Assembly (NCBI RefSeq): GCF_051903065.1
Contig: NZ_CP178438.1
DNA length: 64,000 nucleotides
Strand: one strand, 5' to 3'
DNA from: Escherichia coli
GTDB taxonomy: Bacteria; Pseudomonadota; Gammaproteobacteria; Enterobacterales; Enterobacteriaceae
This document shows positions 3,381-54,137 of the stretch, one piece after another. The notes beneath the pieces are model-generated. The model was given only the letters and a program-made list of their open reading frames with translations. It did not search any database and had not been told where the DNA came from. The position numbers were made by a program, and so were the translations under genes. Position 1 is the first letter of the stretch, and every line of letters begins with the position of its first letter.

Positions 3381-4013
3381 TTACTCTTTTGCGGCTAACG
3401 CCAACATTTGCATCATAAACATCACCGAGGTCGCGCCGGGATCCTGGTGACCAATACTGCGTTCACCGAGATAACTGGCGCGGCCTTTGCGGGCTTGCAT
3501 CGTAATCGTACTTTGTGCAGCGGATTCGGCGATGCTACTGGCAGCTTCGAGCGCCGCCGGAACAGAGAGATTTTGCTCGCTGGACTGACGTAACGATTCC
3601 ACCACCGGCACCCACACATCACACATGGTTTTATCGCCAGGTTCGGCTTTCCCGCGACTGATTACGCCGTCCGCGCCATCGCGGAACATCTGATAAAGCT
3701 CTTCCAGCGTCAGGCTTTGCCGTGCCTGGGTCGCCTGTGCGGCGCGGATAAAGAAGGTACCGAACAGCGGACCACTGGCACCACCGACGCTGGAAAGCAG
3801 CGTCATACCGGTATTCTTGAGAATGAAACCGATATCTTTATCTGCGATAGCAGGGAGTTTTTCCACCACTTTGCTAAAGCCTCGGTTCATATTTAGCCCG
3901 TGGTCAGCGTCGCCAATCTCGCGATCCAGTCCGGTAAGATACTCGCTCTCGGTGTTGAAAATATCGCCACAACGAGTGAGCCAGTTAACAATTTGAGTTC
4001 TGCTCAGTGACAT
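3381..4013 (-). CDS. dhaL: dihydroxyacetone kinase ADP-binding subunit DhaL
   Basis: ORF 3381..4091; trimmed to internal Met giving MSLSRTQIVNWLTRCGDIF (210 aa); 10-nt gaps to dhaK and dhaM suggest an operon. Confidence 0.92.
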   Translation of the reverse strand: MSLSRTQIVNWLTRCGDIFNTESEYLTGLDREIGDADHGLNMNRGFSKVVEKLPAIADKDIGFILKNTGMTLLSSVGGASGPLFGTFFIRAAQATQARQSLTLEELYQMFRDGADGVISRGKAEPGDKTMCDVWVPVVESLRQSSEQNLSVPAALEAASSIAESAAQSTITMQARKGRASYLGERSIGHQDPGATSVMFMMQMLALAAKE

Positions 4014-45920: not shown

Positions 45921-46829
45921 ATGGCTGCCATTAATACGAAAGTCAAAAAAGCCGTTATCCCCGTTGCGGGATTAGGAACCAGGATGTTGCCGGCGACGAA
46001 AGCCATCCCGAAAGAGATGCTGCCACTTGTCGATAAGCCATTAATTCAATACGTCGTGAATGAATGTATTGCGGCTGGCATTACTGAAATTGTGCTGGTT
46101 ACACACTCATCTAAAAACTCTATTGAAAACCACTTTGATACCAGTTTTGAACTGGAAGCAATGCTGGAAAAACGTGTAAAACGTCAACTGCTTGATGAAG
46201 TGCAGTCTATTTGTCCGCCGCACGTAACTATTATGCAAGTTCGTCAGGGGCTGGCGAAAGGCCTGGGACATGCGGTATTGTGTGCTCACCCGGTAGTGGG
46301 TGATGAACCTGTGGCTGTTATTTTGCCTGACGTTATTCTGGATGAATATGAATCCGATTTGTCACAGGATAACCTGGCAGAGATGATCCGCCGCTTCGAT
46401 GAAACGGGTCATAGCCAGATCATGGTTGAACCGGTTGCTGATGTGACCGCATATGGCGTTGTGGATTGCAAAGGCGTTGAATTAGCGCCGGGTGAAAGCG
46501 TACCGATGGTTGGCGTGGTTGAAAAACCAAAAGCGGATGTTGCGCCGTCTAATCTCGCTATTGTGGGTCGTTACGTACTTAGTGCGGATATTTGGCCGTT
46601 GCTGGCAAAAACCCCTCCGGGAGCTGGTGATGAAATTCAGCTCACCGACGCAATTGATATGCTGATCGAAAAAGAAACGGTGGAAGCCTATCATATGAAA
46701 GGGAAGAGCCATGACTGCGGTAATAAATTAGGTTACATGCAGGCCTTCGTTGAATACGGTATTCGTCATAACACCCTTGGCACGGAATTTAAAGCCTGGC
46801 TTGAAGAAGAGATGGGCATTAAGAAGTAA
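45921..46829 (+). CDS. galU: UTP-glucose-1-phosphate uridylyltransferase
   Basis: 302-aa ORF; [26 protein letters not shown] nucleotidyltransferase motif. Confidence 0.96.
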
Positions 46830-46853
46830 CATCCGTATCGGTGTTATCCACGA

Positions 46854-46884
46854 AACGGCGTTGAGCAATCGACGCCGTTTTTTT
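46854..46884 (+). terminator. galU intrinsic terminator
   Basis: ACGGCG..CGCCGT hairpin followed by T7. Confidence 0.6.
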
Positions 46885-46920
46885 ATAGCTTATTCTTATT
46901 AAATTGTCTTAAACCGGACA

Positions 46921-46950
46921 ATAAAAAATCCCGCCGATGGCGGGATTTTA
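46921..46950 (-). terminator. hns intrinsic terminator
   Basis: ATCCCGCCGATGGCGGGAT hairpin flanked by an A-run and T-run. Confidence 0.65.
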
Positions 46951-46972
46951 AGCAAGTGCAATCTACAAAAGA

Positions 46973-47386
46973 TTATTGCTTGATAAGGAAATCGTCGAGG
47001 GATTTACCTTGCTCATCCATTGCTTTTTTGATTACAGCTGGAGTACGGCCCTGGCCAGTCCAGGTTTTAGTTTCGCCGTTTTCGTCAACGTAGCTATATT
47101 TTGCCGGACGCTGAGCACGTTTAGCTTTGGTGCCAGATTTAACGGCGGCAAGGCTATTCAGCAGTTCGTTCGGGTCAATACCGTCAGCGATCAGCATTTC
47201 GCGATATTGCTGCAGTTTACGAGTGCGCTCTTCAACTTCAGCAGCAGCCGCGCTTTCTTCTTCGCGACGTTCGTTAACAACAACTTCTAATTTTTCCAGC
47301 ATTTCTTCCAGCGTTTCAAGTGTACATTCTCTTGCCTGCGCACGAAGAGTACGGATGTTGTTCAGAATTTTAAGTGCTTCGCTCAT
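46973..47386 (-). CDS. hns: nucleoid-associated protein H-NS
   Basis: 137-aa [44 protein letters not shown]. Confidence 0.98.
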
Positions 47387-47989
47387 TGTAGTAATCTCAA
47401 ACTTATATTGGGGTGGTTTGTTGAGGTAATAATAGAGCCTTAAATTCAGTTGTGCAATAGCCAGGAATGTAAGGAATTCAAAATTGTTCTTTATTTTGTG
47501 CCGCCAATAAATATCTTTTCATAAAATTAGCCAGAAAAGACGCGGCATATAGCCCTATTTGTACCGATGATTTCGCAGCACGTGAGGTTAAAACTTCCTG
47601 ATTCATGTCACATTTTATGGGGAGATTATCGTAGGCTGACGACCTTTCAGTCTTCTGTATTAGTCGTGTTTACGAGAATTCCCTATTAAGCGAATGATGA
47701 AAAGTAGAACAGTCGCAATAAGAGCAGGGACTTAGTATTGCACTATCTCCTGGAGGTCAACAGAGGGCTATTACTTGCGCAACAGGTTAAAGATTGTGAA
47801 TAGTTACCAGCAGTCATTTACCCGCTTATAACAAGCGAGGCAGTTGTAATGATAGCTCAGAAGGATTATGCAAGGCTTCGTAAGGGAGAACGCATATACC
47901 ACTTCTGTGCATACTGTTGAGCTGAAAAACTGACGAATTATGATAAACTCCAGCCAACTTTATTTCATATCATTGAGGGCCTGTGGCTG

Positions 47990-48607
47990 ATGGCACAGCT
48001 ATATTTCTACTATTCCGCAATGAATGCGGGTAAGTCTACAGCATTGTTGCAATCTTCATACAATTACCAGGAACGCGGCATGCGCACTGTCGTATATACG
48101 GCAGAAATTGATGATCGCTTTGGTGCCGGGAAAGTCAGCTCGCGTATAGGTTTGTCATCGCCTGCAAAATTATTTAACCAAAATTCATCATTATTTGCCG
48201 AGATTCGTGCGGAACATGAACAGCAGGCAATTCATTGTGTACTGGTTGATGAATGCCAGTTTTTAACCAGACAACAAGTATATGAATTATCGGAGGTTGT
48301 AGATCAACTCGATATACCCGTACTTTGTTATGGTTTACGTACCGATTTTCGAGGTGAATTATTTATTGGTAGCCAATACTTACTGGCATGGTCCGACAAA
48401 CTGGTTGAATTAAAAACCATCTGTTTTTGTGGCCGTAAAGCAAGCATGGTGCTGCGTCTTGATCAAGCAGGCAGACCTTATAACGAAGGTGAGCAGGTGG
48501 TTATTGGTGGTAATGAACGCTACGTTTCTGTATGCCGTAAACACTATAAAGAGGCGTTAGAAGTCGGCTCATTAACGGCTATTCAGGAAAGGCATCGCCA
48601 CGATTAA
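47990..48607 (+). CDS. tdk: thymidine kinase
   Basis: 205-aa [33 protein letters not shown] (P-loop). Confidence 0.96.
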
Positions 48608-48870
48608 TAAGAATTTCTTTACTGACAGGGTGAGCAGGGCGTTTTTATCCTGTCAGTCCGTTTTACGCACTTCCTCTGGGTTATACACCCTTCGCGGTAG
48701 TTTTTAACGCCGCTATACGCCTCACAGAGCGTTTAAGCACCGATATGACCTGTAAAGTACACTATCGCTGTGTGTAGGCGTTATACATCGCTGCAATTAT
48801 GATGAAGGCTAATGCTGTCGGTTTATGGAATAGTTGCTTTGGGTAAACAAAAAAACGGCCCCAGAAGGGG

Positions 48871-50296
48871 TAATGCCGATCAGTTAAGGATCAGTTGACC
48901 GATCCAGTGGCTGTGTAAGAATCCGGAAACGCTCACTCGTTTCCGGATTTTTTTATGCACATTGGACAGGCTCTTGATCTGGTATCCCGTTACGATTCTC
49001 TGCGTAACCCACTGACTTCTCTGGGGGATTACCTCGACCCCGAACTCATCTCTCGTTGCCTTGCCGAATCAGGTACTGTAACGCTACGCAAGCGCCGTCT
49101 TCCCCTCGAAATGATGGTCTGGTGTATTGTTGGCATGGCGCTTGAGCGTAAAGAACCTCTTCACCAGATTGTGAATCGCCTGGACATCATGCTGCCGGGC
49201 AATCGCCCCTTCGTTGCCCCCAGTGCTGTTATTCAGGCCCGCCAGCGCCTGGGAAGTGAGGCTGTCCGCCGCGTGTTCACGAAAACAGCGCAGCTCTGGC
49301 ATAACGCCACGCCGCATCCGCACTGGTGCGGCCTGACCCTGCTGGCCATCGATGGTGTGTTCTGGCGCACACCGGATACACCAGAGAACGATGCAGCCTT
49401 CCCTCGCCAGACACATGCCGGGACCCCGGCGCTCTACCCGCAGGTCAAAATGGTCTGCCAGATGGAACTGACCAGCCATCTGCTGACGGCTGCAGCCTTC
49501 GGCACGATGAAGAACAGCGAAAATGAGCTTGCTGAGCAACTTATAGAACAAACCGGCGATAACACTCTGACGTTAATGGATAAAGGTTATTACTCACTGG
49601 GATTGTTAAATGCCTGGAGCCTGGCGGGAGAACACCGCCACTGGATGATCCCTCTCAGAAAGGGAGCTCAATATGAAGAGATCAGAAAACTGGGTAAAGG
49701 CGATCATCTGGTGAAGCTGAAAACCAGCCCGCAGGCACGAAAAAAGTGGCCGGGACTGGGAAATGAGGTGACAGCCCGCCTGCTGACCGTGACGCGCAAA
49801 GGAAAAGTCTGCCATCTGCTGACGTCGATGACGGACGCCATGCGCTTCCCCGGAGGAGAAATGGCGGATCTGTACAGTCATCGCTGGGAAATCGAACTGG
49901 GATACAGGGAGATAAAACAGACGATGCAACTGAGCAGGCTGACGCTGAGAAGTAAAAAGCCTGAGCTTGTGGAGCAAGAGCTGTGGGGTGTCTTACTGGC
50001 TTATAATCTGGTGAGATATCAGATGATTAAAATGGCGGAACATCTGAAAGGTTACTGGCCAAATCAACTGAGCTTCTCAGAATCATGCGGAATGGTGATG
50101 AGAATGCTGATGACATTGCAGGGCGCTTCACCGGGACGTATACCGGAGCTGATGCGCGATCTTGCAAGTATGGGACAACTTGTGAAATTACCGACAAGAA
50201 GGGAAAGGGCCTTCCCGAGAGTGGTAAAGGAGAGGCCCTGGAAATACCCCACAGCCCCGAAAAAGAGCCAGTCAGTTGCTTAACTGACTGGCATTA
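48871..50296 (+). mobile_element. IS4 insertion sequence (1426 bp), intact
   Basis: 18-bp imperfect terminal inverted repeats TAATGCCGATCAGTTAAG (48871-48888) and CTTAACTGACTGGCATTA (50279-50296); flanked by 12-bp direct repeat CCCCAGAAGGGG (48859-48870 and 50297-50308); contains a 442-aa transposase ORF. Confidence 0.92.
48955..50283 (+). CDS. insG: IS4 transposase (DDE family)
   Basis: 442-aa [43 protein letters not shown]..., recognised as the IS4 transposase. Confidence 0.9.
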
Positions 50297-50337
50297 CCCC
50301 AGAAGGGGCCGTTTATGTTGCCAGACAGCGCTACTGA

Positions 50338-53013
50338 TTAAGCGGATTTTTTCGCTTTTTTCTCAGCTTTAGCCGGAGCGGCTTCTTTTTTCGCTGCAGT
50401 TTCACCTTCTACATAATCACGACCGTAGTAGGTATCCAGCAGAATCTGTTTCAGCTCGGAGATCAGCGGGTAACGCGGGTTAGCGCCAGTGCACTGGTCA
50501 TCGAATGCATCTTCAGACAGTTTATCCACGTTCGCCAGGAAGTCTGCTTCCTGAACGCCAGCTTCACGGATAGATTTCGGAATACCCAGTTCAGCCTTCA
50601 GCGTTTCCAGCCATGCCAGCAGTTTCTCGATCTTAGCAGCAGTACGGTCGCCCGGTGCGCTCAGACCCAGGTGGTCGGCAATTTCAGCATAACGACGGCG
50701 AGCCTGCGGACGGTCATACTGGCTGAATGCAGTCTGCTTGGTCGGGTTGTCGTTCGCATTGTAGCGAATAACGTTACAAATCAGCAGGGCGTTTGCCAGA
50801 CCGTGCGGAATATGGAACTGGGAACCCAGTTTGTGCGCCATTGAGTGACATACACCCAGGAAGGCGTTCGCAAACGCGATACCCGCGATAGTCGCTGCAC
50901 TGTGAACACGTTCACGCGCTACCGGATTTTTAGACCCTTCGTGGTAGGACGCTGGCAGATATTCTTTCAGCAGTTTCAGTGCCTGCAGAGCCTGACCATC
51001 AGAGAACTCAGATGCCAGTACAGAAACATAAGCTTCCATGGCGTGAGTTACTGCGTCCAGACCACCGAAAGCACACAGGGACTTCGGCATGTCCATAACC
51101 AGGTTGGCGTCGACAATCGCCATATCCGGGGTCAGCGCATAGTCCGCCAGCGGGTATTTCTGACCAGTAGCGTCGTCAGTTACAACCGCAAACGGAGTGA
51201 CTTCAGAACCTGTACCAGAAGTGGTGGTGACAGCAATCATTTTCGCTTTCACGCCCATTTTCGGGAACTTGTAGATACGTTTACGGATATCCATAAAGCG
51301 CAGCGCCAGCTCTTCGAAGTGAGTTTCCGGATGTTCGTACATAACCCACATGATCTTCGCGGCGTCCATCGGGGAACCACCACCCAGCGCGATAATCACG
51401 TCTGGTTTGAAGGAGTTTGCCAGTTCTGCACCTTTACGAACGATGCTCAGGGTCGGGTCCGCTTCTACTTCGAAGAAGACTTCAGTTTCAACGCCTGCTG
51501 CTTTCAGTACGGAAGTGATCTGATCAGCATAACCATTGTTGAACAGGAAGCGGTCAGTCACGATGAGCGCACGTTTGTGGCCATCAGTAATCACTTCATC
51601 CAGCGCGATTGGCAGGGAGCCACGGCGGAAGTAGATAGATTTCGGAAGTTTGTGCCACAACATGTTTTCAGCTCGCTTAGCAACGGTTTTCTTGTTGATC
51701 AGGTGTTTCGGACCAACGTTTTCAGAGATGGAGTTACCACCCCAGGAACCACAACCCAGAGTCAGGGAAGGTGCGAGTTTGAAGTTATACAGGTCACCGA
51801 TACCACCCTGAGAAGCCGGGGTGTTAATCAGGATACGAGCCGTTTTCATTTTCTGACCGAAGTAAGAAACGCGAGCCGGTTGGTTATCCTGGTCAGTGTA
51901 CAGGCAAGAGGTATGACCGATACCACCCATAGCAACCAGTTTCTCTGCTTTTTCTACCGCGTCTTCGAAATCTTTAGCGCGGTACATTGCCAGAGTCGGG
52001 GACAGTTTTTCATGTGCGAACGGTTCGCTTTCATCAACAACGGTCACTTCACCGATCAGAATCTTGGTGTTTTCTGGTACAGAGAAGCCTGCCAGTTCAG
52101 CAATTTTATAGGCTGGCTGACCTACGATAGCCGCGTTCAGCGCACCGTTTTTCAGGATAACGTCCTGAACAGCTTTCAGCTCTTTACCCTGCAATAGATA
52201 GCCGCCGTGGGTTGCGAAACGTTCACGTACTGCGTCATAAACAGAGTCAACAACAACAACAGACTGTTCAGAAGCACAGATTACGCCGTTGTCGAAGGTT
52301 TTGGACATCAGTACAGATGCAACTGCACGTTTGATATCAGCAGTTTCATCAATAACAACTGGAGTGTTACCCGCGCCTACACCGATAGCTGGTTTACCGG
52401 AGCTGTATGCGGCTTTAACCATGCCCGGACCACCAGTCGCGAGGATCAGGTTGATGTCTGGGTGGTGCATCAGTGCGTTAGACAGTTCAACAGAAGGTTG
52501 ATCGATCCAGCCGATCAGATCTTTCGGAGCACCTGCAGCGATAGCAGCCTGCAGAACGATATCAGCCGCTTTGTTGGTGGCATCTTTTGCACGCGGGTGC
52601 GGGGAGAAGATAATGGCGTTACGGGTCTTCAGACTGATCAGCGATTTGAAGATAGCAGTTGAAGTCGGGTTAGTAGTCGGAACGATACCGCAAATAATAC
52701 CGATTGGTTCAGCGATAGTGATGGTACCAAAAGTGTCGTCTTCAGACAGAACACCACAGGTTTTTTCATCTTTATAGGCGTTGTAGATATATTCAGAAGC
52801 AAAGTGGTTTTTGATCACTTTATCTTCGACGATACCCATGCCGGATTCGGCAACGGCCATTTTCGCGAGTGGGATTCGAGCATCTGCAGCAGCCAGAGCG
52901 GCGGCGCGGAAGATTTTGTCTACTTGCTCTTGAGTGAAACTGGCATATTCACGCTGGGCTTTTTTTACACGCTCTACGAGTGCGTTAAGTTCAGCGACAT
53001 TAGTAACAGCCAT
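50338..53013 (-). CDS. adhE: bifunctional acetaldehyde-CoA/alcohol dehydrogenase
   Basis: 891-aa [38 protein letters not shown]. Confidence 0.98.
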
Positions 53014-53489
53014 AATGCTCTCCTGATAATGTTAAACTTTTTTAGTAAATCATCTGCTCGAATACGAGAGTATAGTCAGTGCGGTGATGATTTGCTTAAC
53101 CGATGAAAATCAAAAGCTTACTCGCGCTCACACTCACTGTGATTTACTAAAAGAGTTTAAACATTAGAGTTATTATCTCTAATGCGTCACTTCCAGGTGG
53201 CGTAAGCAAGATTACTCACTTCTGGGTACTGATTACGTGATCCAAATCAAATTTTTGCAAAGCTGACACCTTTCAGCATCGCTTTTCGCCATTATAGCTA
53301 ACAGTTAATAAATTGTAGTATGATTTGGTGGCTACATTAGCATGTTTTGCACAACTAGATAACAATAACGAATGATAGCAATTTTAAGTAGTTAGGAGGT
53401 GAAAAATGCTGTCAAAAGGCGTATTGTCAGCGCGTCTTTTCAACCTTATTTATGGCTAACATTATCCGGCTTTTGCTTCGGAGCTAACC

Positions 53490-54137
53490 GTGATTCAGAC
53501 CCTTTTTGATTTTCCCGTTTACTTCAAATTTTTCATCGGGTTATTTGCGCTGGTCAACCCGGTAGGGATTATTCCCGTCTTTATCAGCATGACCAGTTAT
53601 CAGACAGCGGCAGCGCGAAACAAAACTAACCTTACAGCCAACCTGTCTGTGGCCATTATCTTGTGGATCTCGCTTTTTCTCGGCGACACGATTCTACAAC
53701 TTTTTGGTATATCAATTGATTCGTTCCGTATCGCCGGGGGTATCCTGGTGGTGACAATAGCGATGTCGATGATCAGCGGCAAGCTTGGCGAGGATAAACA
53801 GAACAAGCAAGAAAAATCAGAAACCGCGGTACGTGAAAGCATTGGTGTGGTGCCACTGGCGTTGCCGTTGATGGCGGGGCCAGGGGCGATCAGTTCTACC
53901 ATCGTCTGGGGTACGCGTTATCACAGCATTAGCTATCTGTTTGGTTTCTTTGTGGCTATTGCATTGTTCGCTTTATGTTGCTGGGGATTGTTCCGCATGG
54001 CACCGTGGCTGGTACGGGTTTTACGCCAGACCGGCATCAACGTGATTACGCGTATTATGGGGCTATTGCTGATGGCATTGGGGATTGAATTTATCGTTAC
54101 TGGTATTAAGGGGATTTTCCCCGGCCTGCTTAATTAA
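53490..54137 (+). CDS. ychE: MarC-family (UPF0056) inner-membrane protein YchE; GTG start
   Basis: 215-aa hydrophobic ORF (M)IQTLFDFPVYFKFFIGLFALVNPVGIIPVFISM. Confidence 0.9.
   Translation: MIQTLFDFPVYFKFFIGLFALVNPVGIIPVFISMTSYQTAAARNKTNLTANLSVAIILWISLFLGDTILQLFGISIDSFRIAGGILVVTIAMSMISGKLGEDKQNKQEKSETAVRESIGVVPLALPLMAGPGAISSTIVWGTRYHSISYLFGFFVAIALFALCCWGLFRMAPWLVRVLRQTGINVITRIMGLLLMALGIEFIVTGIKGIFPGLLN

Follow-up and report, generated by a model that had tools for sequence, protein, structure and literature searches.

An IS4 element in the terminator hairpin of adhE in Escherichia coli and the probable end point of adhE transcripts

The window analysed here, a stretch of 64,000 nucleotides of Escherichia coli DNA (assembly GCF_051903065.1, contig NZ_CP178438.1), was found to carry an insertion sequence between the convergent genes tdk and adhE. 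The fermentation gene adhE is strongly expressed and has often been engineered, and the locus raises the question of where its transcripts end once the hairpin downstream of the gene has been split, and of whether such an insertion is one event or a recurrent one. The locus has the following features.

47990..48607, + strand: tdk (thymidine kinase, 205 aa), from the ORF list and the annotation of NZ_CP083585.1.
48622..48664, + strand: tdk-proximal terminator-like hairpin, consisting of CTGACAGG, a 19-nt loop, CCTGTCAG and then TCCGTTTT, from the sequence and from a K-12 homologue with a mapped 3' end.
48849..48858, no strand: outer remnant of the split terminator on the left side, A7 and CGG, which on the adhE strand is the U7 tract detached from adhE, from comparison with the empty site of strain PapM-32-1 (L007).
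48859..48870, no strand: target-site duplication CCCCAGAAGGGG, left copy, from a repeat search.
48871..48888, + strand: left inverted repeat (IRL) of IS4, TAATGCCGATCAGTTAAG, with a 16/18 match to the right inverted repeat (IRR).
48917..48954, + strand: inward-facing hairpin of the IS4 left end (15-bp stem) with T7, reaching the transposase ATG, from an inverted repeat and fold.
48955..50283, + strand: IS4 transposase ORF (InsG type, 442 aa), from the ORF list, PF13006 with PF01609, and NF033592.
50259..50292, - strand: inward-facing terminator of the IS4 right end, with an 11-bp stem GCCAGTCAGTT/AACTGACTGGC, loop AAGC and tail TCTTTTTC, from terminator scan, fold and K-12 term-seq.
50279..50296, - strand: IRR of IS4, from the inverted repeat against IRL.
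50297..50308, no strand: target-site duplication CCCCAGAAGGGG, right copy, from the repeat search.
50309..50314, no strand: outer remnant of the split terminator on the right side, CCG and TTT, from the sequence and the comparison with L007.
50338..53013, - strand: adhE (aldehyde/alcohol dehydrogenase, 891 aa), from the ORF list and RefSeq annotation.

The element was identified as a complete copy of IS4 of 1426 bp (48871-50296, + strand), the termini of which, TAATGCCGATCAGTTAAG and the reverse complement of CTTAACTGACTGGCATTA, form imperfect inverted repeats of ~18 bp matching at 16 of 18 positions. The direct repeat abutting both boundaries (48859-48870 and 50297-50308) is exact at 12 of 12 positions, and the presence of such a repeat precisely at both edges of the element is not a matter of chance (4^-12). 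An earlier interpretation made from the sequence alone (the sequence-only reading) had described an IS4 of 1426 bp with imperfect 18-bp repeats and a 12-bp duplication, and it was correct on all of these points. The single ORF of the element (48955-50283, + strand, 442 aa) is intact. Its product scored 304.5 bits against the NCBIfam model NF033592 (IS4 family transposase), for which the cut-off is 115 bits, and it contains the Pfam domains PF13006 (Nterm_IS4) and PF01609 (DDE_Tnp_1). Compared with the IS4 resident in K-12, 14 of the 1426 positions are mismatched (99.0% identity), and the element passes the threshold for a shared IS name, which is at least ~95% nucleotide identity. Its length, terminal repeats, DDE ORF and a duplication within 10-14 bp are those of the IS4 subgroup. 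The RefSeq record NZ_CP083585.1 (E. coli ECNB21-M121) is 100% identical across 2.4 kb and is annotated in the order tdk, 'IS4-like element IS4 family transposase', adhE. The copy in the window is complete and, to judge from these sequence data, probably active; its ORF is intact, and other genomes have near-identical IS4 copies (0-2 differences) at other sites and in the reverse orientation. Both the element and the type of target are already known, and the insertion involves neither a novel class of element nor a novel mechanism.

The target of the insertion can be seen uninterrupted in strain PapM-32-1, in which AAAAAAACGGCCCCAGAAGGGGCCGTTT lies between tdk and adhE and is, letter for letter, the empty site reconstructed by removing the element. 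On the - strand of this strain, the terminator scan identified a hairpin of 10 pairs (seven of them G-C) with a 4-nt loop followed by TTTTGTTT, the stem of which begins 23 nt beyond the adhE stop codon. It is predicted to fold with an energy of -21.6 kcal/mol (z = -4.9 against shuffles), and on the adhE strand it is a textbook intrinsic terminator. The proposal that the target was a palindromic hairpin between an A-run and a T-run was therefore confirmed, as was the empty site itself: alignment to strains lacking the insertion returned it exactly in PapM-32-1, and ~2200 genomes matched the 310-bp empty-site query with at least 80% coverage. It is proposed that a complete IS4 moved into this hairpin by cut-and-paste DDE transposition, with staggered cuts 12 bp apart and centred on the dyad of the hairpin, which would have duplicated the loop and 4 bp of each stem arm. 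The stem has been split and the adhE side parted from its U-tract, as had been claimed, with U7 now at 48849-48855. The native adhE terminator is destroyed, because the adhE-proximal half-stem and U7 now lie 1438 bp apart.

The sequence-only reading had further taken the hairpin to be a bidirectional terminator serving tdk as well as adhE, for which no support was obtained. The terminator scan picked out the empty-site hairpin on just one strand, that of adhE; on the tdk (+) strand, where its tail is UUUAUGUU / TTTATGTT, the same scan did not flag it. The hairpin sits ~240 nt past the tdk stop, and immediately past that stop (48622-48664) tdk has a hairpin and U-tract of its own. Term-seq of K-12 MG1655 (Adams et al. 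2021, PMC7815308 supplementary file 1) placed a 3' end on the + strand at 1294198, inside the U-tract of the K-12 homologue of the tdk hairpin and 54 nt past the tdk stop. Since the scan matched the adhE strand only and the tdk 3' end is at tdk's own hairpin, the hairpin hit by IS4 is assigned to adhE as its terminator. Transcripts of tdk would accordingly be expected to stop at the hairpin next to their own gene, and the adhE hairpin, when uninterrupted, may act as a back-stop for those leaking past it. Any such leak-through would now meet the hairpin at the left end of IS4, ahead of the transposase ATG, and this should halt transcripts arriving from the tdk side. The left-end hairpin was obtained from the fold and is absent from the output of the terminator scan, which missed it because stems are extended maximally into the T-run. 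When window positions 46800-53600 were scanned against Rfam (E <= 0.1), neither the tdk-adhE spacer nor the UTRs matched a known RNA family.

On the adhE side, an alternative to be considered is that termination of both adhE and tdk has been abolished, so that the abundant transcription from adhE continues deep into IS4 or right across it, antisense to the transposase gene, and that adhE mRNA stability, IS4 activity or tdk is affected. The separation of the native stem from U7 favours such read-through, as does the leftover CCCC/GGGG core, which amounts to a weak hairpin of 4 bp. Against it, the adhE strand reads GCCAGTCAGTT-AAGC-AACTGACTGGC and then TCTTTTTC (also rendered UCUUUUUC) from 5 nt within the right end of IS4. 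This perfect 11-bp hairpin, with its T-rich tail, was detected on the adhE strand by the terminator scan (50292->50267) and seen also in the fold, and its 48-nt sequence is identical in the K-12 resident IS4. In K-12 (PMC7815308) a 3' end was mapped at 4502126/4502127(+) under each of the three growth conditions, exactly in the tail of that hairpin. The right end of IS4 thus has a hairpin, a T-run and a mapped 3' end, the last measured in K-12 and there on weak incoming transcription (~1000-2500 units). A Rho-dependent termination region has also been reported in K-12 at 4502176(+), ~50 nt further into IS4 and antisense to insG (PMC7815308), which indicates that some transcripts get past the right-end hairpin and to that extent favours read-through. 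Because adhE is ~50-100x more abundant than the transcription entering the right end of the K-12 IS4, a modest leak past the hairpin could yield substantial antisense RNA over the transposase gene.

A second source of evidence is K-12 itself, in which the adhE terminator hairpin between tdk and adhE is occupied by ISZ' (the insZ pseudogene). In comparison with the IS4 of the window, ISZ' is in the opposite orientation, is a truncated pseudogene of ~990 bp, and is flanked by a duplication of 10 bp (CCCAGAAGGG) as opposed to 12 bp. It is an IS4-subgroup element, with its terminal 35 nt matching the left end of IS4 at 33 of 35 positions, and it has a hairpin and T-run right before the transposase start, in the same position as in the IS4 left end but with a different sequence. 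The possibility that ISZ' is a deleted IS4 was considered and rejected, as the two elements resemble each other in DNA over just ~38 nt at one end, and the ISZ' product is no more than 31% identical in amino acids to residues 23-243 of the IS4 transposase. A strong 3' end was mapped in K-12 at 1295324(-) in three conditions (51,000-100,000 units) and labelled 'orphan' (PMC7815308). It is 122 nt downstream of the adhE stop and 82 nt inside ISZ', at a hairpin borne by ISZ', and we read it as the end of the K-12 adhE mRNA. Zero 3' ends are listed by K-12 term-seq in 1295400-1295499, a range that includes the split hairpin, from which it follows that transcripts pass the split hairpin, in keeping with the read-through alternative. 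However, these transcripts stop at a terminator carried by the IS.

Given the terminator at the right end of IS4 and the 3' ends of K-12, the adhE 3' end is therefore expected to be shifted by ~50 nt rather than to give way to open-ended read-through. The analysis places the predicted end in the window at ~50259-50260, ~79 nt past the stop and ~38 nt inside IS4. The suggestion of the sequence-only reading that adhE transcripts may read into IS4 thus held in that entry is to be expected, and was overstated in that only ~38 nt of the element are expected to be transcribed from this side. Extensive read-through is also opposed by the ending of tdk at its own proximal hairpin, and by the frequency of IS4-family elements in the adhE terminator, which are present there in ~59% of the complete E. 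coli genomes and speak against a serious cost. Taken together, we consider loss of termination to be improbable. Instead, it is highly likely that IS4 inserted into the adhE terminator, which is a recurrent hot spot, that adhE now ends at a terminator borne by the element, and that Rho clears the residue. Under this preferred account, putative inward-facing terminators (hairpin and T-run) at both ends of IS4 would receive the transcripts from either side, and residual antisense read-through from adhE would be removed by Rho. The insertion probably changes little because IS4 brings its own terminators, and its effect on fitness would be close to neutral.

The target preference of IS4 was examined next. 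Through two exact-protein look-ups, 13 distinct IS4 sites were reconstructed, all from sequenced genomes and therefore representing insertions already past selection, not de novo events. The sites share one layout: an A-run, ~3 bp, a duplication of 11-14 bp, ~3 bp and a T-run. The base composition of the flanks and examples of the sites are as follows.

Positions -9 to -4: A at 77-100% of the 13 sites.
Positions -3 to -1: A at 15% of the 13 sites.
Positions +1 to +3: T at 0-8% of the 13 sites.
Positions +4 to +8: T at 62-92% of the 13 sites.
Site bamD/raiA: AAAACGG[CAGCCCTTGAGCTG]CCGTTTTTTT
Site mug/rpoD: AAAAAAACGC[CACCGAAAAGGTG]GCGTTT
Site priC-side/mscK: AAAGGG[CGGCATCACTGTCG]CCCTTT
Site ssb/yjcB: GAAGC[CTCCGTTATGGAG]GCTTC
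K-12 resident site: AAACAC[CAGAACCAAGAT]GCCTATTT

Measured against 36-mers drawn at random from the window, seven of the 13 sites are beyond the 5th percentile in folding, and two, the K-12 resident site and hsdM/hsdS, show barely any fold. As these two barely fold, the common requirement appears to be the frame of A-run and T-run, not the hairpin itself. The check that had been put forward, whether IS4 has the same palindromic target elsewhere, was thus positive in the form of the A-run/T-run pattern. A pseudo-palindromic target consensus, AAA-N20-TTT, was reportedly given for IS4 by Mayaux et al. in 1984, and the pattern observed here agrees with it. The classical sites, which are said to include the galT hot spot, the pheST attenuator and the K-12 resident site (from work attributed to Habermann et al. 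in 1979, Klaer et al. in 1980/81 and Mayaux et al. in 1984), share with the 13 sites an A-run and a T-run around a duplication of 11-14 bp, and terminator or attenuator hairpins as targets. To our knowledge, the tdk/adhE site is not discussed in the classical papers on IS4 targets. The 13-site pattern is also in agreement with the 'spectacular' specificity in the target arms that has been described for the IS4 subgroup (PMC2266710); a further publication provides background on IS4 in Shigella, without target data (PMC7373316). The target preference of IS4 would correspond to the way in which a two-sided intrinsic terminator is built, and it would follow that the adhE hairpin is a recurrent hot spot for both IS4 and ISZ', in either orientation.

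The state of the adhE hairpin was then compared among 5426 complete E. coli genomes, 5413 of which could be classified.

Hairpin empty: ~2200 of 5426, with at least 80% of a 310-bp empty-site query covered.
Hairpin with ISZ' (K-12 type): 1890 of 5426.
Hairpin with IS4 in the opposite orientation to the window: 1134 of 5426, pooling the full-length element and a 1145-bp deleted form (as in ST131); the search joins pieces across the 281-bp deletion.
Hairpin with IS4 in the orientation of the window: 189 of 5426, the rarest state.

The IS4 copies in this hairpin are of several kinds. The copy in WCHEC020031, which shares the orientation of the window, differs from it at 13 positions, while one in the opposite orientation (genome L009) differs at a single position. 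A third IS4 variant (genome L016), again in the opposite orientation, is identical to copies of its own genome at bamD/raiA and higA/fdnI, and the ST131 copy has 24 mismatches in addition to its 281-bp deletion. All IS4 copies in the adhE hairpin share one 12-bp duplication. A group of genomes at 98.2% identity was examined as a candidate for another insertion position and was rejected, since position, orientation and duplication are all equal and the differences comprise a variable spacer after tdk and 13 substitutions within IS4. The simplest reading of these sequences is that several independent insertions into the adhE hairpin have occurred, and gene conversion among IS4 copies could be behind part of the variety seen within one orientation. 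That a single ancient insertion was instead inherited vertically and remodelled by gene conversion, in-place inversion and internal deletion, with no hot spot, is very improbable: it would fit the identical 12-bp duplication of every IS4 copy, and the half-hairpin and terminal-repeat arms form a 36-nt inverted repeat (83% complementary) that could mediate inversion, but ISZ' is another element (31% amino-acid identity) with a 10-bp duplication, the adhE-hairpin copy of CP104613.1 has identical counterparts at two further terminator-like sites of its own genome and so points to recent transposition, the equal pattern at 12 other IS4 sites means that independent events should themselves produce identical cuts, and intact empty sites persist in ~2200 genomes.

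Recurrent insertion, the reading preferred here, has consequences for the study of adhE. Four structural states of its 3' UTR and terminator are present in E. coli, and in reference K-12 the mapped adhE-strand 3' end is inside the defunct ISZ'. These states matter when adhE 3' ends, mRNA stability or RNAs derived from the 3' UTR are compared among strains. The practical importance is small; the locus serves as a natural illustration of the strong preference of IS4 for terminator-shaped targets and of the way in which terminators borne by an IS limit the damage of insertion. IS4-subgroup elements appear to patch the terminators that they split. A bolder proposal, which we entertain tentatively and with the balance tipped slightly against it, is that these elements are dedicated 'terminator homers' that recognise the A-run/T-run geometry of two-sided terminators and patch the split with terminators of their own. 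If this were true, cuts would be made ~3 bp inside each run, so that the length of the duplication (11-14 bp) would track the spacing of the runs; insertion would be nearly neutral, explaining the ~59% occupancy of the adhE terminator; and the 3' end of the reference K-12 adhE mRNA, the 'orphan' of term-seq, would be supplied by a dead insertion sequence.

Of the known systems, the closest is the K-12 IS4 (insG; IS4 in ISfinder, the type element of the IS4 family), which like the element of the window is 1426 bp in length, with 1412 of 1426 bases identical, and has the same terminal repeats, 442-aa DDE transposase and left- and right-end hairpins. Its resident copy likewise has a 12-bp duplication, and the duplications at the 12 IS4 sites other than that of the window are of 11-14 bp. 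It differs in its location, near yjgZ/nanX, and by 14 substitutions. More distant parallels are Tn7, which inserts downstream of glmS, and IS elements that target REP/BIME palindromes. These resemble IS4 in their use of non-coding, palindromic intergenic DNA at the ends of genes, which limits damage to the host, whereas their transposase families and recognition mechanisms differ. Unlike Tn7 and the REP-targeting elements, IS4 splits the hairpin itself and supplies terminators of its own.

Between strains, the spacer that separates the tdk terminator from the adhE hairpin (the intrinsic terminator 3' of adhE) was found to vary much more than the flanking genes:

Window 48665-48848: spacer, tdk terminator to adhE hairpin, roughly 190 bp.

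Identity to K-12 is about 92% in the spacer compared with about 98% in the flanks, and an 8-bp indel at window position 48743 separates it from strain WCHEC020031, which carries IS4 at the same site and in the same orientation. Within the spacer, neither an Rfam family nor a noteworthy ORF was found. In the public "complete" genome of strain d1-58 (L006, NZ_AP040927.1), the part of the spacer where the hairpin is expected has been replaced (locus ~3400-3500) by sequence resembling Illumina TruSeq adapter read-through (..GGAAGAGCACAC..CCAGTCAC..GCCGTCTTCTGCTTGAAAAAAAAAAA), which is probably an artefact of assembly or polishing.

In strain AHM8C212RI (CP104613.1), IS4 is present in identical copies at three sites that resemble terminators, namely adhE/tdk, higA/fdnI and bamD/raiA (L016, L017, and L018), and the same sites are occupied by IS4 again in other genomes, which together suggests that E. 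coli has a short list of favoured IS4 landing sites. A distinct form of the element was identified at the adhE site in ST131 (L004, NZ_CP157672.1):

L004 755-1899, reverse strand: ST131-type IS4.

This copy lacks 281 bp (IS4 positions 980-1260) and is labelled in RefSeq as a frameshifted pseudogene. At each end it has a terminal repeat of the type of the right inverted repeat, IRR (TAATGCCAGTCAGTTAAG), and the two ends therefore form a perfect inverted repeat.

In K-12 (L001, NC_000913.3) the adhE hairpin holds a different insertion, the insZ pseudogene relic ISZ':

K-12 about 1294417-1295405: ISZ' relic.
K-12 1294426-1295405: ISZ feature as annotated in RefSeq.

On the tdk side, the RefSeq feature appears to leave out ~9-10 nt of the terminal repeat, CAATGCCGTTCACTTAAG. 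A very strong 3' end, tagged "orphan", has been reported by term-seq at 1295324(-) in K-12 (Adams et al., 2021, PMC7815308, supplementary file 1). This position lies inside ISZ', 122 nt past the adhE stop codon, and the hairpin and U-tract found there are part of the relic. We read it as the 3' end of the adhE mRNA in K-12, in which case the adhE terminator of the K-12 reference comes from an insertion sequence.

The terminal 35 nt of ISZ' match the left end of IS4 at 33 positions, whereas the two transposases share only 31% amino-acid identity. Both elements carry a hairpin and T-run immediately 5' of the transposase ATG, and the stem sequences of these hairpins are unrelated.
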